A stretch of 64,000 nucleotides of DNA from Eremomyces bilateralis CBS 781.70 (taxonomy: Eukaryota): NCBI GenBank assembly GCA_010015585.1, contig ML975161.1. The stretch is one strand, 5' to 3'. Shown here piece by piece: positions 1-37,982 of this stretch. Positions within the stretch are counted from its first letter, which is position 1. Every line of letters starts with the position of its first letter. The position numbers and the translations under genes were made by a program. The notes below the pieces were generated by a model that had not been told where the DNA came from, made no database searches, and saw nothing but the letters and a program-made list of their open reading frames with translations.

Positions 1-441
1 ATCATATGCCTTCGAACCGGTCATCGTAGGTGGTGTCCGTATCGGTAGCTGATCGGTTTGAGATCGACTCCGTTTACGGCTCGGTTTCGGAGTAACCGTA
101 CCCTCTTCCTGCTCTTCCTCTTCCTGCTCTTCCTCTCCTAGCTCTTCCTCTCCTAGCTCTTCCTCATCGTCTGCAAGGTCCCTTTGCGGATCTAGCTCCA
201 GAGGTGTTGTCTTGCTAGCAGTCTTGGGTATGCTAGACGACGATGCCTTCGCCGATACCTTCTTTGGAGCTACCTGGGCTTTCTTCTTTCGACCCGCCGT
301 CTTTGGGGCCGCCTTCTTTCTGTTCTTTTTCTTCGTAGCTGTTTGTTCTCTCGCAAGTTGAGCAGTGCGCTCAATCTCGTCTTCAAACCGGACGCGCGTT
401 CGCGTACTGCGCGTACCAATTCCACGCAGTTGGGGTGCCAT
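1..441 (-). CDS. Partial hypothetical protein running off the window start; Lys/Arg-rich then Glu-rich N-terminus, possibly a transposase or nuclear protein
   Basis: Stop-free frame from ATG 441: MAPQLRGIGTRSTRTRVRFEDEIE...KKKNRKKAAPKTAGRKKKAQ...DDEEELGEEELGEEEQEEEEQEEG...KPSRKRSRS. Absent from the ORF track because no stop lies in the window. Confidence 0.6.
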   Translation of the reverse strand, partial: MAPQLRGIGTRSTRTRVRFEDEIERTAQLAREQTATKKKNRKKAAPKTAGRKKKAQVAPKKVSAKASSSSIPKTASKTTPLELDPQRDLADDEEELGEEELGEEEQEEEEQEEGTVTPKPSRKRSRSQTDQLPIRTPPTMTGSKAYD

Positions 442-1667
442 TTCCTAAATAAAAAATAAAAAACCCGATATAAAACCCAATCTAATAATTTCCCTTTAAT
501 TTCACAACTTGCAGTCACGAATTCAGCGCGTTTTGGTCATAAAATGGGTGATAATTATCGCGTTTTCTGGTGGAGTTGCGGGCGGGACACACACACACTC
601 AAAAAAACGCCAAGCGTTCTCTCACATTTTGCAACCGCCAGATCACGAAACACACCATATTTCCTACATCAATGATACCCGCGCCTCTGTCAAAGAGCCT
701 AGGAGGTTTTCCTCCATCCAGCACCATGGTGCGTAATTTCATCTGCGATATTGCGAAATCTGAGGTCGTCTAGCAAGTCGAACACTCGATTCACACCTTG
801 GAGATTTTCACTAGGGTGAGCTTACTCATCATGCAGGGTCACTAGGGTATTACGATCTCATTCGCCAGAACTGCCCTGGCCCACTCTGCATATTTGAACT
901 AACCCAATGTGGTTGCACTGATCCAGCCCTCCCTTTTGGAGGCGATCCAGGTCAACCTCAAACTCTCATTCCTCCCACTCAATTTCCTCCTTCAATGGTC
1001 ATAGAAGGGATTTCCAATTGAATAGTATACTGCTTAATGACCTCACCATGCCGTCGGAACCATCTGCCGTATGTTGAAATCTAAGATCGTGTAGTGTGTA
1101 CACCTCTTTGAGTCGCATATATTCTGGTTCTGCCCGGTTCCACCGCAGTCTTTCTCGGGAATTTACTGCAGAACACGCTGTCTTTGACCTCTCACAGTTA
1201 TCAAACCAGGTAGCAGTTCCTCTCAGTATATCGGTGCAGGCTACAAGGTATAAATCCAGCTTTTTATAATCAACCGTCCTCTTGCGATCAGTCTCTCCTT
1301 AACGTTCCTATTATTTTCAGTTCAGATGTTCGGGCAATCTCTATCCAAACTAATTCGTCCAAGTCCTTCATACTCTTATCCCAGCCCTTTTCATATTATA
1401 CTTAGACCGGTGTTAATAAATTCATTTCTTCGATCCGAGAGGGATTCGTATTATTTATCTACTGTTTAAGTAATTTTCATTTCTTTATGGTTAACACGTA
1501 CCAAAACTTTGAACACAGACCTTGCTTTCACCATCATGTTTCTGCTATCATATCTCTACTACCAGCGGCAGGAGTAAAAAATAGGACACTTTGACCTACC
1601 GCCGAGTGAGCAAGAGCCAAAGCAGAGGAAAAGTTAGATCCCATACCAGGATCTCACTGGGTCAAAG

Positions 1668-2519
1668 ATGGGTGGTCAGGCCATCGTCCGTAGCGCTGGT
1701 CTCGAAGATATTTTCTGGATACCAAATGAGAACCGAGAACCTGAGACACCAACGCTCTATGACCCCAAAACTTTCCCGGACTATGAAGACACTGTACGGC
1801 GCGGCTTCTGCGGCGAGACACAATCCCCGCCTCCCTTTCTTCTACATCTCCCGTCCGCTCATCACAGCACTCAGGACGGAAGCATTGCAGTATTACGATC
1901 AACCCTCGAACCAATCGATTGGAACAATGAGGACGACTATGTGGGCAAAGACTTCATCGAAGTGGTGGGATCTATCTTGGATAGTGCACGAAACGGGGTG
2001 CTTCAACATTTTCTGAACATCGAAGGCGTCGAAAGCTTCTTGTTCGCAAGATTTGGCCCGGGAGACAAGTTCTGTCAGATCATTGGACGACGGAATCGAG
2101 AAGTATTCGTACGTCGTCTTCCTAGATACTTAGGCGTCATTCCCTTTATCGAACCAATCCCTGATGTCGCTAACACACAGTAGATCGGGTACGCACTTAC
2201 CGAAGCGCTCGATACTGCCAGGAACGGTGATGCCCTCCTGCTTGCGCTATTCGAAGACAATGCCTTGCTTGACGATCACGGACACAAACCCTGCCTACAG
2301 TCATGCGGACTCCAGAGCTGGGTCCTTATTTTCGTTACCGAGAAGCAGGAATGGTCATACATTGCCGTCATGGATGATTTCTTTCTCCCGGTGGTCTATA
2401 GACTAGAAGCGAGCATTAGTCATTATTGTAACCGATGGGTCGATTTAGCCATCAAGAATCAGATCTGGGCTGCCGATGACCAAGGGGGTCAAGCATTTGC
2501 CACATACGTAAGCAGTTAG
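1668..2519 (+). CDS. Hypothetical protein, 2 exons (paralog A of an unrecognised family)
   Basis: ORF 1668-2108 joins 2184-2519 via a phase-0 intron 2109-2183 (GTACGT...GCTAAC...CAGTAG). Motifs shared with the 3618-4353 gene. Confidence 0.7.
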
Positions 2520-3617
2520 CGTTTCAAGAGAATGGAAGCAAGACAAGAGCCTAGGACGGTTGACTGCCTCCATTGCTCCCAAGAGGAACAAAGTCAACAG
2601 TAAGAGGCAAATAATAATAAGAATCAATTTAACGTACTATCTGGATCCCTTTCGGGTCTATGAGCACGATATTCTATCTGGTCTGTCGCGGGCAAAAGTT
2701 TCCCCCCAGCCGAGGCTGCAGGTACATAAAATCCCGCCTCCTCCCCTTAGTAGAGTATCTCAATCATTGTTCATCTTTCCGCACGGGTCGGTGTTTCCGC
2801 CTAGGAGGCAAATAACATAAGTAGTCATACCCCCTTTTCGCAATCCATCAATTTGCGATGTCGATGTTTGAAGCATTCTTATGGTTATATTTGCAGGATT
2901 TCCAAACAACATCTTCGCAGTCAACGTATAAAATCTCTCCCAACCCCCTCATCCAACGAGGAATGCATCGTGCCACTCACTGTCTGCTCATATCATTGGC
3001 TTGTATATAATCAGGATCCCCAAGACTCTGAAAGGATCCCCTGAATTCTACTACTACACAGTTCTTCGTCTACCAAATATCCGGGTATACAGCACCATTA
3101 TAAACCTTCCATTTGGAAGTCTCCAACCAAAAAGCCAGCCCATTCGAGTTGAAGGAGGACAGTAGAAGGATACCTCTGCCGGTACAACTGCCAGAGCAAC
3201 GTTTCATAGGTCTTTCGTAACGTTGCTCTTATCCATTGTGCTCTGTGGCAACGGAGTGGGTAGACTTGCCGGGTGCATTTTGTAGAGTGGAGGACATTCG
3301 GGTTCACGTATAAATTCATCACCAGCGTGATGACTCAAATCAGTGACCTTGGAAGACTTGTAACACATTAGTCGCCCTTCTTCCAATATACCAGTTCATT
3401 CACCTGCTGTGTCTTAACACAAGGAATTTCCTGCAAATTTGACACTCTCCTTCCTCATATCTACACCGCGGAAGACAGTCGATCCAACGTTCTGCATCTT
3501 GCATTCTTCACAATTGTTGTAGCCGGAAATTCCATTCTCTCACTTTAGAAGCACTTCCAAAGGACAATACAAACCAGGGCCCAGAAACCATCATCCGACA
3601 GTAAAGACGTCCGAATA

Positions 3618-4353
3618 ATGACAAACCACTCGAAAAACTCCCGTAAGGCTTCCCGACCGACTTGTATTCTGTCCTAGGATATTGAATGTAACATTTCATA
3701 GAATCCCCATCGGAGTACTCATTCCACCACCTCCCCCTTCCAGGGTGGTTGGGGATGACCAAGGTCATCGACTTCGCCAGATCTCGGTTCGTTGAGGACC
3801 ACGAGTTCGACTTTCCGAAGTTAGAAGAAGTGGTTGGTTCCGTCTTGTTCCACCAGGACAAGAAACACCTCGAAGCCTTCCTCGAGACTCGAAAGATCAA
3901 GCAATTTTGGTGGATGCGTGTGGACGAGAGCAAGGAGCTCATGCAGGTGATCGCCCGCCGCGAGCACGACGTCATCGTAAGGACCTTCTTTCATTATGCC
4001 CTAGCTATCTCTTAACGTTTGCATAGGTCGGGTGGGTTAGCCATGTGGCATTCGAGGGCCAGAACTTTACCCAACTTCTCGACAACATCTGGGGCGGAGC
4101 ATCCCTCGACAACCACGAGATCTGCCCTCATCTCCAAGCTCTGGGCCTGATGGCATGGATTTTATGCTCCCTGTCCTCACAGGGCGAATGGAACCGCCGT
4201 TGTGTGATGGGCAACGGGATGCCTGACGATACTTCGGACCAGATCCAGAAAATTCGTCATGCTGGGAGGCTGTGGGTAAAGTCCGCTATCACGGAGAAAA
4301 TCTGGGCCGCGAAGGAAGAAACAGTCCAGCATTTCTGGGTTCATTATACCTGA
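3618..4353 (+). CDS. Hypothetical protein, 3 exons (paralog B of the same family)
   Basis: ATG 3618; introns 3643-3701 and 3977-4026 (both GTAAGG...CATAG) give a continuous frame MTNHSKNSQSPSEYSFHHLPLP...HFWVHYT*. Confidence 0.75.
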
Positions 4354-5882
4354 GTGCGACCACCAGTGATTGCAGTGCAGGGCGGAAGACTCGGACTTGG
4401 AAAGTGGAAGAAAGGAGATAAGAAGCGAGGGATGAGCAATGGGAGTTGAAAATGCGCATAATATCAATATCCACCGGTATATATGAAATCAAGCGCAGCG
4501 TTTCTGATAAATTTTAGTATTGCGGGCGTCAAGTGAGTATTGTTGAATATTCAGTTCATTTTTAGACAAGGAGACTAAATCCATCGCTGGGTAGTAACGG
4601 ATACTGCTGTTGCTGAAGATAAGAAGTATCGCCTACAATGGTGATAACTACAAACGGCTCCAGGGCGTAATCTAGGGTGGCGTCGCATTTGATGACGACA
4701 GAGTCAAAACGCACCTCCAAGCTCTTGGACTGGATGGACGGATCCTATGCTCCCTTTCGGATAAGGGAGAATGGGTTCGCCGGAGTGCCATGGACGACCA
4801 AATCCCCTGAAGATGAGGCGGATCGGGCTAAGAACATTCGACTGTTAGAGAAGAAGTGAGTGAAAGATGGCATCACTGAGAAGGTTAAGGTGCAGCGAAA
4901 GATATAGGAGAGTAGGAGTACTTCTGGGTCCATTATAATTAAGGGCAAAATGGACATCGAGTGAGCTTGAAGGGCGTAAGCCTCGTCAAACATCCCGATC
5001 CCTGTGGCATGATAAGTGCTAGTAGGTGTTCGACAGTGTCGTGACCTTGTCGTGGGCCCATGGCCATCAGGATATTCTGAATTCCGACCAGTCATCCCAC
5101 GCTCCAAGAATAAGTAGTTCAAGACATCTGGTGCGGAGGACGGCTCTTAATGTTCCACATTTCATATCGGTGGGAATAAATGCGCATCTTTATAAGCTGA
5201 GTCCGTTGATCACCTCCAATTGCATCTTTTTCGAGCAGCAGTGATACTCTGACTGCATCGGACTGCATCGCACGGCGGAGTGAAGTGTTTCGGCCCCTGT
5301 CCGCATTAAAGCACGCTTGACCTTATCTAGACTAGCGTACCGCCGATGCGCCGATCACCCATTCTTCTCACCAACGAGAATAGAACAACTTCACCTCTCT
5401 CGCTGGAAGGCCAAACTTTGGCGGGTGGGCTGAGGGCCTGTCGTGAGAGGGGCTGTGTAAGCGTATATCGAGTTATTGACCACCATAATGTAATGGAAGT
5501 GGAGATGCCAGATATTGCTCCCATCTAGCTGTTGGCTCGTTTCAGTTCATTCAAGTTCGCTGTGTCGCTCGTTCTTTCTATTCCATCCTATTGAGTCTTC
5601 TGCTGTTCAACCATCCCATCTCTTCTCGGGATATTTCTCTCCATCTTCGCCTCGTCGGCCTCATGTGTCCGCCTGCATCCGCGAATACACTTGTACGACG
5701 ACCGTAACTCGTCAAGGAACTACTTATTGACTGTCCTACCCACTCGATCCCTCGCTTCGCCCGTCCCCTTCGGCACCCCATCTTCACATCCGGCCAGCGA
5801 CTGACCGTGGTCCAACCTTGTCCGCCTATCTGCACGCAGCCGACGAATAGGGACGACTGCCGTGGCTCGTAGCCGGCAGATT

Positions 5883-6959
5883 ATGGCCGTCCTAACTAGG
5901 TCCGCAGAACCCGATGATGATAAGCTTGAGCAAGAACATGAACACTGGGATCCAACCGCCGTAGGGATGCAGTTTCAAAAACTCCCACAAACCAACCCTT
6001 CTATACGACATTCCAACGACGACGACAACGACAGCGACGACGATGATCCAGACAATGACCCAAGCGACGTAACTCTCACCATCGAACTCCCTCCATCGTC
6101 TACATCGACGGACTTACCGCCATCGATACCCACGACCGCGAGGATGAATGGGATAGCATTCAAACCATGGCCTCAATTCCAATCATCTCCCCCATCATCG
6201 ACGCTCCTAACGACCACCACCGACGATGCCTCCCAAACCTCACCCACCTCAACCTCAACCCCCCTCTCCGCCATCGAAACCGGCCCGTCAAAACACCTTC
6301 CATCAATAGGTCCCGACTCCAGCCCCAACCCCAACCCCCATACCAAACCCGACACCATTCCTACCCGCATCCTCGTCAGCGGCATCATGGGCCCCCTCGT
6401 CCTCCTCTTCCTCATCGCCCTCGGTATCTACCTCTGCATCGTCCGTCGCCGCCAAAAACGCCGCCACGAACTCGAAGCCGCCGACCCCCCGATGCACCTC
6501 CAACCCAACGCCACCTCCCTTACCCGCTCCGACGGAACTGCCGCGCCCTCCAACCCACCACCCTCCTCCCCCGTCCCCACATCCCCTCCCCCCGTCCTCC
6601 TCACCCGCGACATCACCGCCGCCTACTACACCGGCATCGACACCTCCGACCACCCGCGCACCCCACCCCCACCTATCTCCCCGCTCGAAAACCCTTTCGA
6701 GCCCATCTCCCCGCTCGATGACGACGAGCCGCCCCCGCCATATCGGCCGCGGAGCGAGAACGGGAGCGGCGCCGATGGGTTGGGGAACCCGTTTGAGGAT
6801 CCGGAGGAGTTGGGGGAGGGGGGGAATGGGATGCATGTGGTGGCAAACGGGATGGGGTGGGGGGAAGGGATGGCGGGAGGGAGGGAGGGGGCGGCGGAGG
6901 ATGCGGCGAGTGAGATGAGTGATTTGAGTGATGATTCTTTGGAGAGGAGAGGATGGTGA
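5883..6959 (+). CDS. Single-pass membrane protein: Asp- and Ser/Thr-rich N-terminus, Pro-rich tail with PPPY and NPF motifs
   Basis: Long ORF; hydrophobic ILVSGIMGPLVLLFLIALGIYLCIV followed by RRRQKRR; tail has EPPPPY, ENPFE and GNPFE. Start codon uncertain. Confidence 0.75.
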   Translation: MAVLTRSAEPDDDKLEQEHEHWDPTAVGMQFQKLPQTNPSIRHSNDDDNDSDDDDPDNDPSDVTLTIELPPSSTSTDLPPSIPTTARMNGIAFKPWPQFQSSPPSSTLLTTTTDDASQTSPTSTSTPLSAIETGPSKHLPSIGPDSSPNPNPHTKPDTIPTRILVSGIMGPLVLLFLIALGIYLCIVRRRQKRRHELEAADPPMHLQPNATSLTRSDGTAAPSNPPPSSPVPTSPPPVLLTRDITAAYYTGIDTSDHPRTPPPPISPLENPFEPISPLDDDEPPPPYRPRSENGSGADGLGNPFEDPEELGEGGNGMHVVANGMGWGEGMAGGREGAAEDAASEMSDLSDDSLERRGW

Positions 6960-7559
6960 GCGGGTACGAGTTGATATGAGGACCATGATTGATGGTTTCG
7001 GGGTATGGGTTGATATTGGTTCAGGATGGCGGCGCTTGGGTCTTGGAGAAAAGCTTTTTATGGCATGTCTGGTCAGTTTTGGGATGTCTTGAAGGCCTCC
7101 GAAATTGGAACAATTGGTGGATTGGGAATGGATGATTCTGGATAGCGTCGCCTTGTCATGATGGAGTTTCTTCTGGGATGGAGATTTGGGCCTACCTGTT
7201 GGTCGGCTCCATGGGTATGTTGATGGATAATGAATGATATAGGTCACGATGTCCCGATCTAAGACACGTCCAAGATGTCTACTACGATAGAAGTCAGCTG
7301 TGAATTGGCAATCAGACCTGGGATTTTCCGTTGCATTGAACGTCCCAGTAACATAACTATTGTCATCTCAACCACATGAATAAGAACGGACATTAACCAA
7401 TCACACGGTAGAAATTCATATTCGCTCCGCTTTCGTGAAATGAACAAATCAACCGTAATCACGGTACCCAAGAGATGTCAAATTCGCTATCTGCACCATC
7501 CCTTCCTTACCCTAACCCACGACCCGACATGCCTCATTCCCTAGAAAACCACCCCCATA

Positions 7560-13442: not shown

Positions 13443-13727
13443 ATCAGAGCGAGACGTTTCAGCCAGGTATCCGTCCATATCGCGATCTCGGGTTTACTGA
13501 CCGTTCATGATTTCATAGGGCCCTTGGTTTCAATAGGGATGGCAATGGGATTACAACCAATCTGAGTTGTGTGGTTCTGGGACTCGATGGGTTCGCCAGG
13601 GAGCGGACGGAGGCGGTCCCAAGCTTCGTTGATGGCCGAGTCCGGTTTAAGTGTGACAACGTAATCAACGACGCGGCCGTGGAGAGCGGAGCGCACGAGG
13701 GATGCGGGTTCGGTTCTGGCCGTTTTT
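13443..13727 (-). pseudogene. Fragment of a fungal PD-(D/E)XK nuclease-like gene
   Basis: Reads KTARTEP...RVVDYVVTLKPD...NHTT...PIAIPIETKGPMKS*TVSKPEIAIWTDTWLKRL, matching the family pattern VD...NHT...PIAxxIETK...xIAIW; TGA at 13505-13507 interrupts it. Confidence 0.7.
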
Positions 13728-13767
13728 CTACGGCCATGAGCATGTGACTGTTGAGATCTACGACGAG

Positions 13768-15151
13768 ACGAAGACGAAGACGAGCTGGCCAACCTGTTTC
13801 GTTCCAAAGTGAACATCTTAGCCACAGAACAAGATTCAGAACGGGTTTTGAATCTCCACAAAGATTCAAGAGAGATTGGAACTATTGTTTTTCCAGACGG
13901 CGACACGTTTGAGCAAAATGTTATGTTGTGGGCTATTTCGGAATGCATACTGGCAACTTGCATGCAATAAGCCGATATCTTAGCACTTCCGCCGAAGCTA
14001 AACTCTTTCTACACAGAGAAGACAATACTGGAAACACTTCTCTGATCATGGCGGCGGAAGAGAAGAGCCATGAAATGATGTCAGTCCTTTACAACACGGT
14101 GCAGATACGAACGCTATCAATGATGGACGAAGTCCGCTCATGGAGGCAGCGCTCTGGGGACGAATTGAAAGCGTGAAAGCGCTGCTTACCGCCAACACTG
14201 ACAAACGTCTTCGAGATCAGAAGGGTCGGTGGATATAGCGCAGCGGGCTCGCAAAAATGAAAAGGAAAGATAGGAGCGCGCTTCTATCGCTGCAGCAGAG
14301 AAAGTTCCCGAGCGTGACGAAGACAGGCGAAACATTGTCCTTTTACTCAATGACTCGGCCACCAAGAAGCAGCATGGATGCACCGGACCGCTTTCGGAGG
14401 GTGAACTGAACAAGTATAGCTTCAGGGAATCCCGATCTGAGATGGCAATTACGCTTTATGGACCCGTTGGCAGCTACCGCGTGCCATGAATTACCAAAAC
14501 TGGCGCCGTTCTAGACGGTAGGGATCAATTTGCTCGTATATCGGCAACTAGTGGCTGGGGTGCCGATGCTCTGCCTCTAAACAACAATACTGGGACACAC
14601 TGGACTGAGCACGTCTCTTATATCGCTTCCACGATTGGCCATAAGCTCCAAGATGCGCCATATCCGGGTTGGGGCCAGGGCAAGCCGGGGCAGGATTGTG
14701 CTTGCCATGCGGAGAAGAAGTTGATCGCCTACTTCATAGACAGGCACGGGTTCATGCCGCAAGACAGAGAGCAGACCAGGATTTGGAAGACTCAATCCGT
14801 GAAGTGGAAGACTTTCTTGCAGACGGAAAGCACTCGTCCGTAGCCTGGGAAAAGGCGTGTGATCTGGAAGAAGGAAAGTAGAATTTGACTCCCAGCTCTT
14901 CGACGCAGATCATCGATTACTGGGCGATTCTGACGATGAGCAAATGGTCAAGAGACTGAAATCTGAGATGCATGCGATCGATGAAGAACTGTTATGGTAA
15001 GCCTTGAGTTGGACGCTAGCGTGGCTGCGATGAGAGCACAGGAAAGGGGCAGTCTTATTGATCAGCAACGAGATCTGCGAACTGTGATATGTTCAAGAGA
15101 AAGGAGAATACCTGTTTCCAGTTGAATATCGAAATGCGCCGGTGCACCTAA
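13768..15151 (+). pseudogene. Decayed ankyrin-repeat + SsdA/DYW-like zinc-dependent deaminase gene
   Basis: Across frameshifts: ankyrin GNTSLIMAA and GADTNAINDGRSPLMEAALWGRIESVKALL; SGW (14550-14558); GQGKPGQDCACHAEKKLIAYFIDRH (HAE 14706-14714); ISNEIC-E/-C-DMF (Cys 15076 and 15083, frameshifted); stop 15149-15151. Internal stops at 14271 and 14487. Confidence 0.85.
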
Positions 15152-23256: not shown

Positions 23257-24531
23257 CTAGACAAACACTTCACCATAGTCCACCATGTTCGGTGACCATT
23301 TAAAGCCTTCTCCGGCATGTTCCGTTTCACTCGGCAGCGTGACTTCCAGCGGGCTGTAAAGATACCACGACTTAAGCGCTGCCGCCGCCGCTCGTACTCG
23401 TGCCTCCATAAGACTCGCCCCAGCCGCTTCTCCCAACTTGTCTTTCCCGGAGTACACGCCCACCACGTACACCGGATGCCGGCTCAGTCGACCGGTCTCC
23501 GAGATGAGTCTCGCCACCGGCGCTTCGAAGCCTTCTCGGCCGCAGAGAATCGCCAGTTCCCGTTGTGGGTGCCGGAACTGGAAGAGGGACGCGACGTCGA
23601 GTCTTCGCGAGAGGAAGTGCGCTTGGAAGAAGCGCTTGGTGGCGATGGGACCGCAGTGGAGGTACAGAGCACCGATGAGTGCCCTGACGAACGATTTGTA
23701 GGCGTCCTCGACAGGTATACCAACAGGTTCGGCCTCGGCGCCAGTCGCGTGGTCTTCCGCATTTGATATCGTTTCTCTTGGCACGTCTTTGGGGAACTTG
23801 AAGTTCGTGTTCGAGAAAGGGGTTGTCACCCCTTTATGGAGGTCGCCGAACTGGTCGTCGTATAGCACTCGCGAACTCAGCGTCCGCCTCCGATTGCCCC
23901 AAGCTTCCTCCGGCGACGCGACCTCCTCGCCCGAGGCGAGCTTCAAGTGCTGCAAGAGCCCCGGGTCGACCTCACCGCCGGGATGCGCGGCGGTCTCCAC
24001 ACCCCATTCCTTGGCGATCGTCGCGAGGGCGGTCGATCCAACATACGCGGACTGCGCGGCGAATAGGATCGCGATGGGTATCCGCGGATAGTGGCAGAGG
24101 AGGTATTCGGAGGTGTAGTATCCGAGGAGGTCGGAGCCGAGGGTTTCGAGGGCGGCGTTGTTGAACTGCGGGTTCGGATCGGCGGAGGGGGTGACGAGGG
24201 CGCGGGCGAGGGTTTGGATGGGGAAGCGGGAGGGGAGAGAGAGTCGGGCGTGGAGGGCGGACAGTTTCGGAGAGGACAGCGAGCGCTGGACCAGTGGTGA
24301 CGGGAGTTCCTCGTCCTTCCAACGCCGCGTCCGGGGACGGTCTATCGGTTGTCCATCCTCGAAGGACGGATGGGGATTGCTGGCACTTTCCTGCGCAGCG
24401 TATGCCGAGTATCTACGGCATTGAGGGAGGGAGAAAGGTGTTGGGGGGTGGGATCGAAGGAAGTGAGGATGCGCTCGTGACGGAGAACGCAGGTATAGAG
24501 GAACCTGCGTTCGTAACCGGATGGGCTTCAT
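23257..24531 (-). CDS. MRPL3: Mitochondrial ribosomal protein mL44 (degenerate RNase III + dsRBD)
   Basis: Arg-rich presequence, KLSALHARL, VRALIGALYLH, SETGRLSRHPVYVVGVYSGKDKLGE, ALKSWYLYSP. Confidence 0.92.
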   Translation of the reverse strand: MKPIRLRTQVPLYLRSPSRAHPHFLRSHPPTPFSLPQCRRYSAYAAQESASNPHPSFEDGQPIDRPRTRRWKDEELPSPLVQRSLSSPKLSALHARLSLPSRFPIQTLARALVTPSADPNPQFNNAALETLGSDLLGYYTSEYLLCHYPRIPIAILFAAQSAYVGSTALATIAKEWGVETAAHPGGEVDPGLLQHLKLASGEEVASPEEAWGNRRRTLSSRVLYDDQFGDLHKGVTTPFSNTNFKFPKDVPRETISNAEDHATGAEAEPVGIPVEDAYKSFVRALIGALYLHCGPIATKRFFQAHFLSRRLDVASLFQFRHPQRELAILCGREGFEAPVARLISETGRLSRHPVYVVGVYSGKDKLGEAAGASLMEARVRAAAAALKSWYLYSPLEVTLPSETEHAGEGFKWSPNMVDYGEVFV

Positions 24532-24831
24532 GAACAAATCGGGAGGGCCAACACCATCTGCTCTATATCCTGTCAGCGGCCGGGAAGCAATAGAGAACGA
24601 GATTCCGAGAACGTGGGCTAGAAAGAATCAGTGAAGTGGTTGAATGTTTGGAAAGTTCGACGTCGAAAAGTCGAGAAGAGAGAATGTCCCAAAGCGGTTT
24701 AGTCGCATACGATTGCTCGGCGGCTCAACTCCAACGTCAAGGAAGTCCACTATCATCGCAATTGAAGCTATCTTTGCGAGCAATTCCCAACACCTCTCTC
24801 CTTATACCGATTATTTCCGGGTCCTTTCACA

Positions 24832-31784: not shown

Positions 31785-33905
31785 GACTGAATGTCAGAAT
31801 CACAAACACGGTTCGTTTAGAGTAAGACAGAACGAAAGATCCAGACAGATTGAATTTGAAACGAGATATCGAAGTGAGAATTGCAAGTAGAAAACAGGCC
31901 GGGTTACAAAGGATTCACATGTTAAGAGTCCGTTGCAGCGTGGAAGTGACGGCGAGATCAGTGCCTTCTCATATTCAGGCGCTCCATGGCCGACACTTGT
32001 CTTACCGGCATTCATATATCGAAGAAAGCCATAACAGCCTCCTTCGGTTGAGTCCATGTACTTACCAACCAAACGAACCCGTCATCGCTGAGCAGAATGG
32101 GTTTCGGAGATGACAAGAATCCGAATCACGCAAGTTAGAGGGGGCGGACAGTTGCACAGCCAAGTGATTTACCACTGCCGGATTCCCACGCCGGTACATG
32201 TATGCCAACATCCAACACCTGATGGATGAAATCGCGGAATCGATGATTAGTGCCAGGTTCATCCAGTGGAAATTGGAAAATCACAGAGACGTTGTGCGTT
32301 CGGGCAGTCAACCTTGCCTCCGCTAAACCAGTAACCACTAGACGGGCCGATCGTTCGACGCTGGAGGGCGAAGTGAAAATGCACTTCCTTTTCTCTTTTG
32401 ATGTGCTTGACTGAGGAGTGAGGATGTATTCTCCGAACCGGTAGTACACCGCGGCGCTCCCGGTGGCAGGTGACAAGCCGTCCGCTCTTCAGGATTGCAA
32501 CACGTCGGTTGCTTGCGGAGTCGGCGGCTGCGGACAGGTATTTGAAGACCAAGCCTGGGCGTCCCTGGAAATCGTGGCCGACCCGGATCTGGATATTGGA
32601 CAATTTACACAGGGCTGTACACACGACACCCCCCCCCGCAAGACGTTCGCCGAGCTTGGCTGCCCTATCATGGAACGGAATCCAAGCCATCCTGCCCCGC
32701 CACCGTGTGCTATTCTCAGATGGCTGCAGGTTTGGGGCATATCCGACTCGAATTGCATACGGTACGGCAGTATTCCCACGCATGGTGCGGAATCGAGACG
32801 ACTGGATTGACGAAGAGAACCTCCAGCGAGCAACTGATATCATGAAGTGGATTCTTCTGCTGCGGACCAAGGCATTGCAACTTGCATGACTGTTCGATAG
32901 CTAGGGCAAGGCTGGGCTGCATCCAGCCTCCTTCATCCTTCCAGCTTCATCCTTCCAGCTTCTTGTTGAAGTCTGAACACATTGAAGAAATAGAACATCG
33001 GATGGTCCAGGAGACTCGTAGACACTAGACAGAGTCAGGTAAGGTATTTCTCTCAATTTCTAAGTCCGAACTAAACGTGACCATGCGTCAATCCTCAGTC
33101 GCGTCGCGTCTTCATCGAAAAAGCAACGCTTAGCGACTAGTCCCAGCAACCGGGGGGATGCCGGGATCTCTTACGGCCCCGTGAGGCTGCTCCCGCTTGT
33201 CCAACGCGCTGCCCCCACCCCCCTAATAGCAAATCAAAAGTGTGAGAAACACTGCCGCCGCTATCCAATTGTTCCCTCTTACCAAGCACCCCCTCCTTTC
33301 TCTTTCCATCGCCTTTTGATGCACCAACTCACCCCTCTTGGTTCTAAACTGCCATCGTCATTCGCATCCAAATTAAATTACCTTGACGAAGACCCTGAGG
33401 CATCGATTTTCTCAGCCTTGGGCATCTTCGTCAAGGAGCTTCATTCCGTGCAACCACTGCGAGCTAAGCATTGCGATACGGCTGGCGAATCGAGATCAGG
33501 CTGTGGGCGATAAACAGCCCCTTTGGTGTCAATTGGATAAGTCGAGCTTTGGTTTATGTGTATGGAGAGCATCGCTTGTTTCTTGCTTCAAATTCCTTCT
33601 TTTCAAAGTTGAACTTCTCTTAGAAAGTCCTCTGGACAATATATGTGTACCATCGGGTACAGCTCAATTGGCGTGGACCTAAAGCTTACACATGGAGAGA
33701 AACCGAATACAGAAATATAGTTGGGTTACATGGCTGGACTCCCTAGATTGAGCAGCCTTACAAACGATATTGGGCATTGTTTCTTTCCTTCACCCTAATA
33801 TCGGTACCCTTCACTACGCTACCTAGGGCTCTCCTAAGACACCATTGCATTGGTCCAACCATCAGGTCCTGCTCCATTGGGTTCCAGCACCAGCATCGGT
33901 CCGAT

Positions 33906-36900
33906 ATGCCCCAACTACACTCACTCTCCACCCCTTCCGGGATCAGGACTTACTCCCCGGGACATCAAACGCCGGGAAATATCACCCCGTTGAGCAAGAG
34001 ATCCCTCACAAGCAAATATAAGCATTCTCATTATATGGTCAATGGTGCAATCCGGGAACTCAACCGGAGGTGGATGTTTGGATTCCAGGAGCGTCCCTCG
34101 CTCGATGATCCGACCAGCCATTCCTTCGACCATGGCGCATCTATTCGAGCATTCGATGGGATCCTAGCCCTGTTCTTCCATAATTCATGGGATGAATTCA
34201 TCGAGCTTCATGAGGATCACTGGGACTCGCTGCCGCAGCATGCACGACTCGACCGCTTCTTGGACGCCCTGGACACCTTTCGAGAAACTAGTCGTTCCGC
34301 CGGGAAAGGCAAAAGGTCGGAATCCACCCCGCAAATGTCGCCGGTATCGTCTTTTGCGGAGAAACTACAGAAGGCGGGCACGCCCATTCCCAAACGACGT
34401 CGCACCCCCTCGTTTGGCGAGGGTCATGCGGCGACGCCATTCCTCGCGGCCCCAATACTGCCTCCGCCGAAGAAGCGGATTTCCAATGGAGATTCGGCCA
34501 GTGTACCCTATACGACGGCGCAGTCCACCAGCGGAGCACCACCTAGCAACATGCTACCACCGGCTGCACAGCTTAACTGGTCTTTTGGATCCACTGTACC
34601 CTCTGCTAATGCCTCGTTTGGCGCCGTTTTTGACAGCAACCGTCTATCTAGAAACACATCCTTCACCACTGTACCCACTGAGCCGGATGAAGACTTCTAC
34701 AAAGAGCCGTTGCAACAGGAAGACCCAGGGCTAGACTTTGGCTGTCCCCCCTCCAGTTCGGACCCCCTTGCTGGGTTCACCGACAGCCAACTCGAGCTAG
34801 TCTTTCGCGAAAACAATTCACAGGACCAACCGCAAGTCCCCGAGCCCCCCCGCCGCGATGGGAATGGCCGGACGGAGATGTCTATTGTCCGCGATTTCCC
34901 CTCCAAAGGTCTCCATATTGACTTCTTCAACGAACTCCTTCACTTGGACTTCTTTAAGCGTTTCGAGTGTGCGCGAGTATCAATCGATACCGACCGGAAG
35001 GTAAAGACCATCTGGCCCAAGGTGCAATGTGCTGATGACTACGAATCATTCTGGAGTCCCGTCAAGCAGTTCCCGTTGATTGCACGCCCTTCGTTGAAAG
35101 CATGGCAAGCCGGCCGCGTGCAGTCGCCGAATGTGTACTACACGGCCGAGTTGAAATATAACAAGGACCGTTATAATATCTTCAAACTCATCCTCAATCC
35201 GATCACGGTGGAGGAGACGTCCAATCGGTTGCACCGCAAGTTCGGCAGCCACCGGTTCCTGCATTTGTCGTTTCCCTTGCGGAACCACCTTCCGGACTTC
35301 CTCCGGGGCCAAGAAACCCACCTGTTCGACCGTTTCCGTGAATGGACCGCCAAGCCCAAGCACTTCCTCGGGTGCAGCTGGGAAGTCTTCTATTGCAAAG
35401 AGAAGAAGGTTCGAGCCAAGTCGCGCAAGATGAAAAGCGATGACGACTTCGGACTGCGGATTGTCCTTTTCGCGACGCAGGGTCCACGGATCAAAGATGT
35501 GTCCATTCATGAGTTGCTGGACTGGTTCATGCCTCTCCAAAGCAACGCCCAGATGACATATTGCAAAGGTTTCGCACGCCTGGATCTGGCCCTTTCCGCC
35601 ACCTACCCGAGCGTCAAATTGAAGCCATCCGAGGTGAAGTTCACGCGAGACAAGCTTGCGGACGGGAACCCGGAGGCGTGTGAGTTCGACGACCCCGACT
35701 TCCCACGCTCGAGTGTTGCCTACGATTTCGACCCTGATCGCGTTATGGATGATGGCTGTCAAGTCATGTCAGTCGGACTAGCCAGGGAGATCTGGCTGAC
35801 TCTCGGCGCCGAGGGCCCACTTCCTGCTGCGTTTCAGGGGCGGATTGCCGGCGCGAAAGGGATGTGGTATAGGAGTGCTCCGTCAGACACCACGGATCCG
35901 CATAACCTGCAGAGATGGATCCGCATCAACGACAGCCAGTTGAAGTTCAAGTCGCATTCTGAGGACCTGAGTGACGACAAGAACTACGACCCTGATCGGC
36001 TGACGTTTGAGGTACACTCCTACACCAAGAAACCCGCTCCCGGCGCCATCTACGTGGACTTTCTACCAATCCTGGTCAACCGCGGTGTCCCGGTGGGCGT
36101 TTTGCAGGATATCGTGTCCCGCCCTCTGGACGAAGACGAGAAGGAGCTGCTCGATGGCCTGGAGAATCCCGAGCTGTGTCGGCAATGGATCCATAAGCGG
36201 CACGCATATTTCGAGGACATGCACCGCGAAGCCGACAGCCCCATGCTGTATCAGGGAAGCATGCCCTTTGGCCAACTCGAACGGGCGATCCTGCTGCTGG
36301 AATCGGGATTCGATATCCACCTTGGCCTCCTCGGCGATTTAATGCAGGGGATCGCCAAGTCGTATTTCGAAGACACGTTGAAAACCATGCGCATCGACTG
36401 CGAGAAGTGCGTGAATCTCAAGGGTATCGCGGACCACAGCGGCACCCTGAGTCCAGGCGAGATCCACGTCTGTTTTTCCGAGAGCATCGGGGACGGGCTC
36501 GCGCAGTTCATCAATCAGGAAGTGCTCGTCGCGCGAAATCCGGCGCTGCGTGTCTCCGATATCCAGAAGGTCCGTGCGGTGTTCAAGATGGAGCTGGCGC
36601 ACCTGCAAGACGTCGTCGTGTTCCCCACCCGAGGATGCTTTCCCTTCGCCGCTCGGTTGCAGGGAGGCGACTACGACGGGGACACCTTCTGGATTTGCTG
36701 GGAGAAGAGTATTGTCGACCCGTTCCGCAATGCGCCCGCTCCCACCAAATCGCCGAATACAGGAGATTACGGCGTTGAAGTGGATCGACGGACGCTGGGC
36801 GATGTGCTTAAACCCGCGCCGGAAGGCGGCACCCCGGACGTCCGCGACTATATCAACGAAAGCATCAAATTTCGCTCGAAGGATATCTTGGGGAACATGC

Positions 36901-37982
36901 TGGCGTACTCCACGCTGTACCACCGAAAGGTGGCGTACGCCGCGAATTCCTTGCGACATCCCGGGGTCGAGAAGCTGGCTGATCTCCACGACCTCTTGAT
37001 TGACTCCGCCAAGAACGGGTATCTCTACGACCAGGTCACGTTCCATGACTATATCCGCTCGCAACCGGATATCACCCAGGTGATCCAGGCGCAGCGGGCC
37101 GGGCTGTCCAAGCCAGCGTATCAGGAGAGCATGGAGCAACTGCGATCCAAGAAGCGCAAGTCCACCGACAAGCCTCGATATAACAAAAGCCACATCATCG
37201 ACCACATCTACTTCCAAGTTCTCCAACCCCGCGTGCAGGCCATTCTCCGCCGCTCCTTCGCCCGCATCGCCCATCTCGCCTCCCCCGCCCCCGACCCCAC
37301 CCTCCTCGCCCGCTACCACCACCTCGCCCACAGCGCCGCCCACGACCCGTCCTCCGTCCTCCGCACCACCCTCATCACCGAACTCGACGCCCTTCTCTCC
37401 GCCCTCCGCACCCTCTACGCCCTCCACTGGGCCGCCCCCTCCCGTCACGCCATGGAGCTCGCCGACCGCGACCCCTCCGCCAACGCCTCCCTCGACCAGC
37501 TCGACCGGCGCATCGCGGACTGCCACGTGCGGTACACTGACATCCTCCCACATGACCCCACTCATCCGACCATCGCCGAGTGGCTCATCCCCGCCGCCCC
37601 CGGCATACCGACCTCCTGGGCCATCCTCAAAGCCAGCGCGCTGTACGCAGTCATCTCGGGGGAGGCACGGGACCCGGACCGCCGGTCACCGCGGAAACCG
37701 GGACTACACCGCGCGGCGGGTAGTGGCGGGTTGGCGCGGCAGGGGGAGAAGTTCCTGTGGTATATGGCAGGGACGGAGTTGGCGCGGATGAAGGCGTTTC
37801 GGGAGGGGGGGCGGGCGAGAGTGTTGGTGGAGAGGATGTGGGCGGGGATGAAGCCGAGGAGGATACGGGTGGAGTTGGAAGGGGGTGAGGAAAGGGGGAA
37901 GGAGGTGGAGGAGGTGGAGAAAGAGGTGGGGGTGGATGGGTTTGATAGTGATGAGTTTCATTCTGCGGCAGAGGGTTGGTGA
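33906..37982 (+). CDS. qde-1: Cellular RNA-dependent RNA polymerase, QDE-1-like (RNAi/quelling)
   Basis: About 1360-aa intronless ORF with DGC, FQGRIAGAKGMW, LVARNPAL, DVVVFP and catalytic GGDYDGD followed by WICWE. Confidence 0.92.
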   Translation: MPQLHSLSTPSGIRTYSPGHQTPGNITPLSKRSLTSKYKHSHYMVNGAIRELNRRWMFGFQERPSLDDPTSHSFDHGASIRAFDGILALFFHNSWDEFIELHEDHWDSLPQHARLDRFLDALDTFRETSRSAGKGKRSESTPQMSPVSSFAEKLQKAGTPIPKRRRTPSFGEGHAATPFLAAPILPPPKKRISNGDSASVPYTTAQSTSGAPPSNMLPPAAQLNWSFGSTVPSANASFGAVFDSNRLSRNTSFTTVPTEPDEDFYKEPLQQEDPGLDFGCPPSSSDPLAGFTDSQLELVFRENNSQDQPQVPEPPRRDGNGRTEMSIVRDFPSKGLHIDFFNELLHLDFFKRFECARVSIDTDRKVKTIWPKVQCADDYESFWSPVKQFPLIARPSLKAWQAGRVQSPNVYYTAELKYNKDRYNIFKLILNPITVEETSNRLHRKFGSHRFLHLSFPLRNHLPDFLRGQETHLFDRFREWTAKPKHFLGCSWEVFYCKEKKVRAKSRKMKSDDDFGLRIVLFATQGPRIKDVSIHELLDWFMPLQSNAQMTYCKGFARLDLALSATYPSVKLKPSEVKFTRDKLADGNPEACEFDDPDFPRSSVAYDFDPDRVMDDGCQVMSVGLAREIWLTLGAEGPLPAAFQGRIAGAKGMWYRSAPSDTTDPHNLQRWIRINDSQLKFKSHSEDLSDDKNYDPDRLTFEVHSYTKKPAPGAIYVDFLPILVNRGVPVGVLQDIVSRPLDEDEKELLDGLENPELCRQWIHKRHAYFEDMHREADSPMLYQGSMPFGQLERAILLLESGFDIHLGLLGDLMQGIAKSYFEDTLKTMRIDCEKCVNLKGIADHSGTLSPGEIHVCFSESIGDGLAQFINQEVLVARNPALRVSDIQKVRAVFKMELAHLQDVVVFPTRGCFPFAARLQGGDYDGDTFWICWEKSIVDPFRNAPAPTKSPNTGDYGVEVDRRTLGDVLKPAPEGGTPDVRDYINESIKFRSKDILGNMLAYSTLYHRKVAYAANSLRHPGVEKLADLHDLLIDSAKNGYLYDQVTFHDYIRSQPDITQVIQAQRAGLSKPAYQESMEQLRSKKRKSTDKPRYNKSHIIDHIYFQVLQPRVQAILRRSFARIAHLASPAPDPTLLARYHHLAHSAAHDPSSVLRTTLITELDALLSALRTLYALHWAAPSRHAMELADRDPSANASLDQLDRRIADCHVRYTDILPHDPTHPTIAEWLIPAAPGIPTSWAILKASALYAVISGEARDPDRRSPRKPGLHRAAGSGGLARQGEKFLWYMAGTELARMKAFREGGRARVLVERMWAGMKPRRIRVELEGGEERGKEVEEVEKEVGVDGFDSDEFHSAAEGW

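Follow-up and report, generated by a model that had tools for sequence, protein, structure and literature searches.

Gene models and transcript evidence

The stretch of DNA analysed here, referred to below as the window, comprises 64,000 nucleotides (nt) of contig ML975161.1 from the fungus Eremomyces bilateralis CBS 781.70 (assembly GCA_010015585.1). Near its left end, two related genes, designated A and B, lie in tandem on the plus strand, and a disabled partial copy, designated psi, is found downstream of B. An initial annotation, made from the sequence alone, had described the interval 1668–4353 as two diverged tandem paralogs of an unrecognised family with an intron at the same site. The end points of this interval were correctly placed, with 1668 being the ATG of gene A and 4353 the stop codon of gene B.

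Gene A consists of two plus-strand exons. Exon 1 (1668–2108) starts with the ATG at 1668, contains 147 codons, and specifies residues 1–147 of the database protein P0001. It is followed by a 75-nt phase-0 intron (2109–2183, GTACGT...GCTAAC...CAG/TAG, with GT..AG ends) and by exon 2 (2184–2519), which contains 111 codons and the stop codon, and matches P0001 at 100%. Splicing gene A by coordinates (1668–2108 joined to 2184–2519) reproduced the 258 amino acids of P0001 exactly. P0001 is listed as “hypothetical protein P152DRAFT_489296” of E. bilateralis CBS 781.70 (KAF1811543.1 / XP_033533174.1). When the intron is left unspliced, an in-frame stop is encountered at 2181–2183. The intron ends with tandem acceptors, CAG (2178–2180) and TAG (2181–2183), and the frame is kept open by the distal one only. 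Such an arrangement could serve as an on/off switch operated by alternative splicing.

The best model of gene B has three plus-strand exons (3618–3642, 3702–3976, and 4027–4353) and a product of 208 amino acids. Exon 1, which consists of an ATG, 8 codons, and 1 base, is unrelated to the A N-terminus and is separated from exon 2 by a 59-nt phase-1 intron with GT..AG ends (intron 1, 3643–3701). Exon 2, which carries the frame of the public protein P0002, is homologous to A exon 1. Intron 2 (3977–4026) is 50 nt long (GTAAGG...TTAAC...TAG), and has the same phase, 0, as the A intron. Exon 3 contains 108 codons and the stop codon, and is homologous to A exon 2. The ATG at 3618 is the first one in the open frame 3549–3677, and since no ATG is present between 3391, the start of an assembled transcript contig that ends at 3642, and 3618, the latter is likely the start codon. 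The N-terminal ~51 residues of A have no counterpart in B, and homology to A starts at the first codon after B intron 1. B thus appears to have exchanged the 51-residue leader of A for a new leader of 8 residues.

Transcript evidence came from a public run (X1), which is available as contigs only and is presumed to be RNA; 77% of sampled words from positions 1500–5000 were present in it. A single joint was observed at the locus. It connects 3642 to 3702, skips 59 nt with GT..AG ends, and is present in one contig at a depth of 2.6. The same junction had been derived from the reading frame alone before X1 was examined. The joint implies that X1 contains complementary DNA (cDNA), that gene B is transcribed from the plus strand, and that the B 5′ exon is real. 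An unspliced contig (3613–3731) also runs over B intron 1, at a depth of 6.3 compared to 2.6 for the spliced form. RNA thus supports B intron 1, while the intron shared by the two genes is represented by unspliced contigs only. The X1 contigs do not cover positions 2319–2552, a part of A exon 2; this was not taken as silence.

The two genes differ in the quality of their public models. For A, the model and the spliced product are the same. B is represented by a single public protein, P0002, which is unnamed, 86 amino acids long, and starts at an internal methionine at 3755. It corresponds to a retained-intron reading, and lacks both the RNA-supported 5′ exon (3618–3642) and the 108-codon last exon (4027–4353) that is homologous to A exon 2. 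The public gene B model is truncated within the shared intron, and is corrected here from 86 amino acids to 208 amino acids and three exons. Psi, the B 5′ exon, and the corrected B model go beyond the initial annotation.

Paralogy, selection, and a dead third copy

Exon-by-exon BLASTP comparison connected A exon 1 with B exon 2 at an expectation value (E) of 5e-8, and A exon 2 with B exon 3 at E 2e-12. The spliced products aligned with 48 identical positions out of 160 (30%), two gaps, and E 3e-20. The Smith–Waterman score of the pair was 169, compared to a mean of 31.7 (standard deviation 4.7, maximum 55) in 500 shuffles, which corresponds to z = 29. The alignment of spliced proteins is thus significant, and every motif pair that had been quoted as a sign of paralogy was found where the initial annotation had put it, inside the alignment. 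One of these, QSP..HLP, is weak yet colinear, and is coding in B only thanks to the extra 5′ exon and intron.

The first residues encoded after the shared intron, residue 148 of A and residue 101 of B, are paired in the alignment, and both introns are in phase 0, so the phase-0 intron proposed to be common to both genes indeed occupies a single alignment column. GT..AG ends are found in each intron, along with a branch-site-like motif (CTAAC or TTAAC). The two introns show no sequence similarity, and their lengths are unequal (75 nt in A and 50 nt in B). Based on the colinear alignment and on the identical column and phase of the intron, A and B are tandem paralogs of one ancestral intron-bearing gene.

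Comparison of A and B over 153 aligned codons revealed identities of 50, 54, and 30% at codon positions 1, 2, and 3, respectively, with about 26% being expected at the third position from composition alone. Saturation of silent sites combined with preservation of the protein indicates an old duplication that has been under long purifying selection. The pattern was similar upstream of the intron (0.46/0.62/0.28, 50 codons) and downstream of it (0.51/0.50/0.31, 103 codons), implying selection on the protein across the exons. The other two frames of the A and B DNA contained 3–14 stops and gave alignment scores of 34–36, which is the chance level. Codon-usage log-odds, trained on 12 Pfam-bearing open reading frames (ORFs) of the window, were positive in frame for A exon 1 (+0.20), A exon 2 (+0.29), B exon 2 (+0.56), and B exon 3 (+0.25). 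Out of frame, they were negative in all four homologous exons, and both spacers were negative in every frame. A and B are, therefore, real, selected coding genes and not spurious ORFs. The initial annotation had described an old duplication with both frames intact and a common intron position, and the alignment, codon-position, and frame tests agree on this.

The locus contains a third family member that the initial annotation had overlooked. With B as a query, tblastn detected a match at 4628–4936 (E 1e-13) interrupted by several in-frame stops. An independent repeat search yielded a direct repeat (D2) in which positions 4129–4215 are paired with 4712–4798 at 70% identity over 87 nt. DNA alignment covered the whole last exon, down to an aligned stop-codon position at 4940–4942. 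Taken from these three sources, psi is a plus-strand pseudogene of the last exon at 4628–4942. Two of its Trp codons have become stops, and indels of 1, 2, and 3 nt are present as well; at least four of these lesions are disabling. Nucleotide identity was 58% of 334 positions between B and psi, 45% of 338 between A and psi, and 47% of 327 between A and B. Of the two genes, B is the nearer relative of psi, which gives the branching order (A,(B,psi)). Psi is nearer to B in sequence than A is and yet has been disabled, while the frames of A and B are intact; it thus serves as an internal control for selection. Repeat-induced point mutation (RIP) was considered as a cause of psi decay and rejected: 66 transitions and 74 transversions were counted, and the TpA/ApT and (CpA+TpG)/(ApC+GpT) indices, evaluated against generally used RIP-index thresholds, were 0.80 and 1.21, respectively.

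Relatives, predicted structure, and genomic setting

The relatives of the family were sought with a profile alignment of three rows, made from A and the B exons, whose sensitivity is at about the level of A–B divergence. A HMMER search with this profile against 1,835,955,588 representative proteins returned two proteins at E <= 0.001, P0001 and P0002, both of which are the locus’s own; beyond profile position 152, only P0001 was matched. In a word-indexed search with A exon 2, one out of 121 candidates passed, and this was A itself. Searches of metagenome contigs with B exon 3 and A as queries gave 44 and 41 pattern matches, respectively, with no relative confirmed among them. The family thus appears to be taxonomically restricted, with no homolog detectable outside the lineage in the protein databases and metagenome contigs searched.

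No recognisable domain was found, as the initial annotation had stated. Pfam searches with four exon translations gave three sub-threshold matches only (E 0.099–0.24, 12–13 bits compared to cut-offs of 25–39), and full-length A matched 0 families at E <= 0.01. A sequence profile search of the PDB returned five matches at E 0.78–1.4, which were taken as chance. Domains associated with fungal incompatibility, namely HET (PF06985), HeLo, and NACHT/NB-ARC, were present in neither A nor the B exons, and neither in 21 flanking nor in 28 long ORFs of the window.

A is present in the ESM Atlas as a poor model with a predicted local distance difference test score (pLDDT) of 0.29. Neither whole A nor residues 90–258 had a usable match in the Atlas search by features, and structure rows all had template modelling (TM) scores below 0.5 and belonged to unrelated families. 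Structure prediction, which the initial annotation had proposed, was run with AlphaFold2 and yielded two models of low confidence. In the conserved part, both contain two helices, two or three strands, helices, two strands, and a long helix. Together with the conservation pattern, these recurring elements suggest that A residues ~98–258 may form a folded mixed alpha/beta domain of ~160 residues. The maximal 19-residue hydropathy was 1.14 for product A and 1.44 for product B, values that correspond to no membrane span. The N-termini of A and B are not hydrophobic, and the isoelectric points of the two products are 4.6 and 6.2 (acidic to neutral). The products are thus predicted to be small, soluble, intracellular proteins with neither a signal peptide nor a membrane segment.

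The window is an ordinary gene-dense piece of chromosome, with 17 of its 28 long ORFs being ordinary cellular genes with Pfam families. A Pfam scan of the long ORFs placed a glycogen phosphorylase gene at about 7.5–10.3 kb, and other Pfam-bearing ORFs correspond to a glycosyltransferase, a signal peptidase, a carbonic anhydrase, an RNA-dependent RNA polymerase, a CPSF1/DDB1-like propeller, a SWIRM/Myb protein, and ETF-alpha. The initial annotation had placed the paralogs beside a possible mobile element, and this was not supported: a Pfam match at E <= 0.01 was obtained for 0 of 21 flanking ORFs (positions 1–7367), and neither spacer has a second copy within the window. An Rfam search of positions 1–7000 gave one match, at E 0.94, which was taken as chance.

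The only hint toward a mobile element is a segment of about 250 nt in the A–B spacer (2553–2801) that resembles abundant X1 contigs. Summed X1 contig depth was 1800–2000 over this segment, compared to 2–17 elsewhere. Its sequence is common to several contigs of 600–2000-fold depth, which diverge at 2609–2614, 2658, and 2801, and one X1 contig over the segment differs at 2726 (A>G). Part of the depth excess, though not all of it, is accounted for by an (AAT)n run at ~2609–2620. Rfam yielded nothing in the segment, which could be a piece of a dispersed repeat or of some highly abundant transcript.

Several other features of the window were recorded. The plus-strand ORF at 33747–37979 (1411 amino acids) carries the RNA-dependent RNA polymerase domain (Pfam E 7e-111), and a minus-strand ORF at 23260–24627 carries a ribonuclease III domain (Pfam). 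The two lie ~10 kb apart, and both families are tied to RNA silencing; they are unconnected to A and B. A minus-strand ORF at 13508–14008 matched PDDEXK_12 of the PD-(D/E)XK nuclease superfamily weakly, though above threshold (E 8e-8). No other nuclease-type match was found among the 28 long ORFs; this one could be what is left of a selfish gene or of one related to repair. At the left edge, a minus-strand gene (1–444) with no Pfam match encodes a region rich in lysine and, after it, an acidic repeat rich in Glu, which is specified by a 15-nt tandem unit present in four copies that are 70–100% alike (102–170). A Pro/Ser/Thr-rich open frame of 384 codons lies on the plus strand at 5805–6959, reaches a GC content of 0.70, and also has no Pfam match. 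It contains one hydrophobic stretch followed by an Arg/Lys run, and looks like a single-pass membrane protein. A long open frame antisense to it (6303–7367) is probably a by-product of composition.

Interpretation of the locus

Taken together, these results make it likely that the A/B locus is a real, selected, lineage-restricted tandem gene family of E. bilateralis. The family would have grown by local tandem duplication and evolved by birth and death, a process that would account for two intact old paralogs (A, 258 amino acids, and B, 208 amino acids) and, downstream of B, one partial copy that has decayed. The difference between the A and B leaders could have arisen at the border of the duplicated segment, where B would have gained a 5′ exon that A lacks.

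Several observations weigh against this interpretation. No X1 contig shows the shared intron removed, in A or in B: one contig (2048–2211) runs through the A intron, and another (contig 8, 1423 nt) is colinear over 3702–5000, and so includes B intron 2, exon 3, the spacer, and psi. The public protein P0002 likewise runs into the shared intron at 3977 and reaches a stop at 4013–4015. In gene A, use of the proximal CAG acceptor would bring a TAG in frame and limit the product to 147 amino acids. The AlphaFold2 models obtained with the three-row alignment are too poor to use, both for full A (pLDDT 34.3, predicted TM score (pTM) 0.22) and for A residues 90–258 (pLDDT 41.1, pTM 0.33). Finally, the search for relatives left out unannotated fungal assemblies, and the copy count is that of this window only.

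The transcript observations would also be expected if A and B were decaying, with the upstream exons alone being expressed (about 147–172 amino acids for A and about 111 for B), the shared intron being retained, and the downstream ORFs being relics. X1 contigs retain the intron in both genes and show no joint across either, the public B model has the retained-intron form, the proximal A acceptor would add a stop, and the third copy shows that the family does lose members. Yet the downstream ORFs (111 and 108 codons) are intact despite 53% nucleotide divergence, while psi, at 42% divergence from B, has accumulated at least four lesions. The codon-position pattern downstream of the intron equals that upstream, in-frame codon log-odds are positive there, and the splice signals are canonical. 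Moreover, the unspliced background in X1 is high, as B intron 1 demonstrates. Since contigs keep the commoner variant, and since B intron 1 is itself mostly unspliced, splicing of the shared intron is unconfirmed and not disproved. We therefore consider decay of the two genes to be quite improbable.

The lineage-restricted family could also belong to a known fold or superfamily and share its function, with isolation of the lineage and fast evolution of the genes having carried the sequence out of reach of the searches; this is compatible with A and B being real, selected genes. The profile contained three sequences only, which limited its sensitivity to roughly the A–B divergence, and the two AlphaFold runs repeated an ordinary alpha-alpha-beta-beta(-beta)-alpha...beta-beta-alpha pattern. 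The species is also isolated: Haridas et al. (2020, PMC7082219) present Eremomycetales as a new order built around the genus of E. bilateralis. On the other hand, no Pfam match was below E 0.099 for the exons and none was at E <= 0.01 for full A, PDB sequences gave E 0.78 at best, and the Atlas twice gave no usable match, with TM below 0.5 in the structure rows. Membership in a known fold is thus possible, if rather doubtful. A new fold that arose within Eremomycetales, de novo or by extreme divergence, and then passed through at least two duplications under purifying selection, could be the origin of the family, but we regard this as unlikely.

The initial annotation had further suggested a lineage-specific module of the immunity, incompatibility, or drive type. 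Lineage restriction is borne out by the profile search; the assignment to such a module is not, since no corresponding domain or membrane feature was found. Fungal conflict loci such as wtf, Spok, and het consist of tandem, fast-evolving paralogs. The wtf drivers of Schizosaccharomyces pombe are multi-pass membrane proteins, and Spok proteins are large, with nuclease and kinase domains. The A/B locus resembles these systems in its lineage restriction and in the presence of tandem intact and dead copies, and differs from them in having no membrane spans, no HET, nuclease, or kinase domain, and no repeat- or transposon-rich setting. Circumstantially, rapidly diverged tandem paralogs with a dead copy, restricted to one lineage and encoding products with a common core and different N-termini, could be a toxin–antidote or spore-killer pair, or a heterokaryon-incompatibility locus. 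However, products of 258 and 208 amino acids with neither a membrane span nor a domain match do not have the sequence properties of wtf or Spok proteins: there is no HET, NACHT/NB-ARC, HeLo, NLR, nuclease, or kinase domain, and hydropathy maxima of 1.14 and 1.44 leave no membrane segment of the wtf kind. Housekeeping genes surround the pair (17 of the 28 long ORFs scanned, including those for glycogen phosphorylase, signal peptidase, and ETF-alpha), and none of the 21 flanking ORFs carries a mobile-element domain. Saturated silent sites point to a long-lived pair and not to a fast-turnover driver, and the locus holds two live copies and one dead copy of a single family rather than unlike partners. 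A genetic-conflict role for A and B is, therefore, very improbable.

As for what the products of this selected family do, we can offer a low-confidence guess: a lineage-specific protein that is non-essential and acts inside the cell in binding or regulation, rather than an enzyme of any known class.

An orphan family is expected in such a lineage, given the isolation of the order and the low share of Pfam domains among unique genes. In the Dothideomycetes study by Haridas et al. (2020, PMC7082219), the share of “unique genes” with a Pfam domain is only 8.6%, and orphans lacking such domains are thus common in these genomes. A second study (PMC7325674) describes the placement of E. bilateralis as unstable. 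Compared to the unique or orphan genes of the Dothideomycetes survey (Haridas et al. 2020, PMC7082219), A and B are alike in having no Pfam domain, no relatives outside the genome of the species, and, in the case of A, only a “hypothetical protein” annotation. They differ in forming a small family with saturated silent sites, a conserved intron, and a dead member, and these properties speak against an artefact of annotation or a gene born de novo very recently. The fungus lives as a saprobe on dung.

If the domain did prove to be a new fold, the locus would be a rare and tractable “old orphan”, in which a dead paralog next to two live ones could be used to study how a new protein becomes established. 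Its interest would also grow if the domain were part of a conflict system; the present findings do not point to either. The value of the locus lies mainly in annotation, as a “hypothetical protein” of a sparsely sampled order is now placed in a selected three-member tandem family. In addition, the comparison of live and dead copies inside the locus demonstrates selection without recourse to other genomes.

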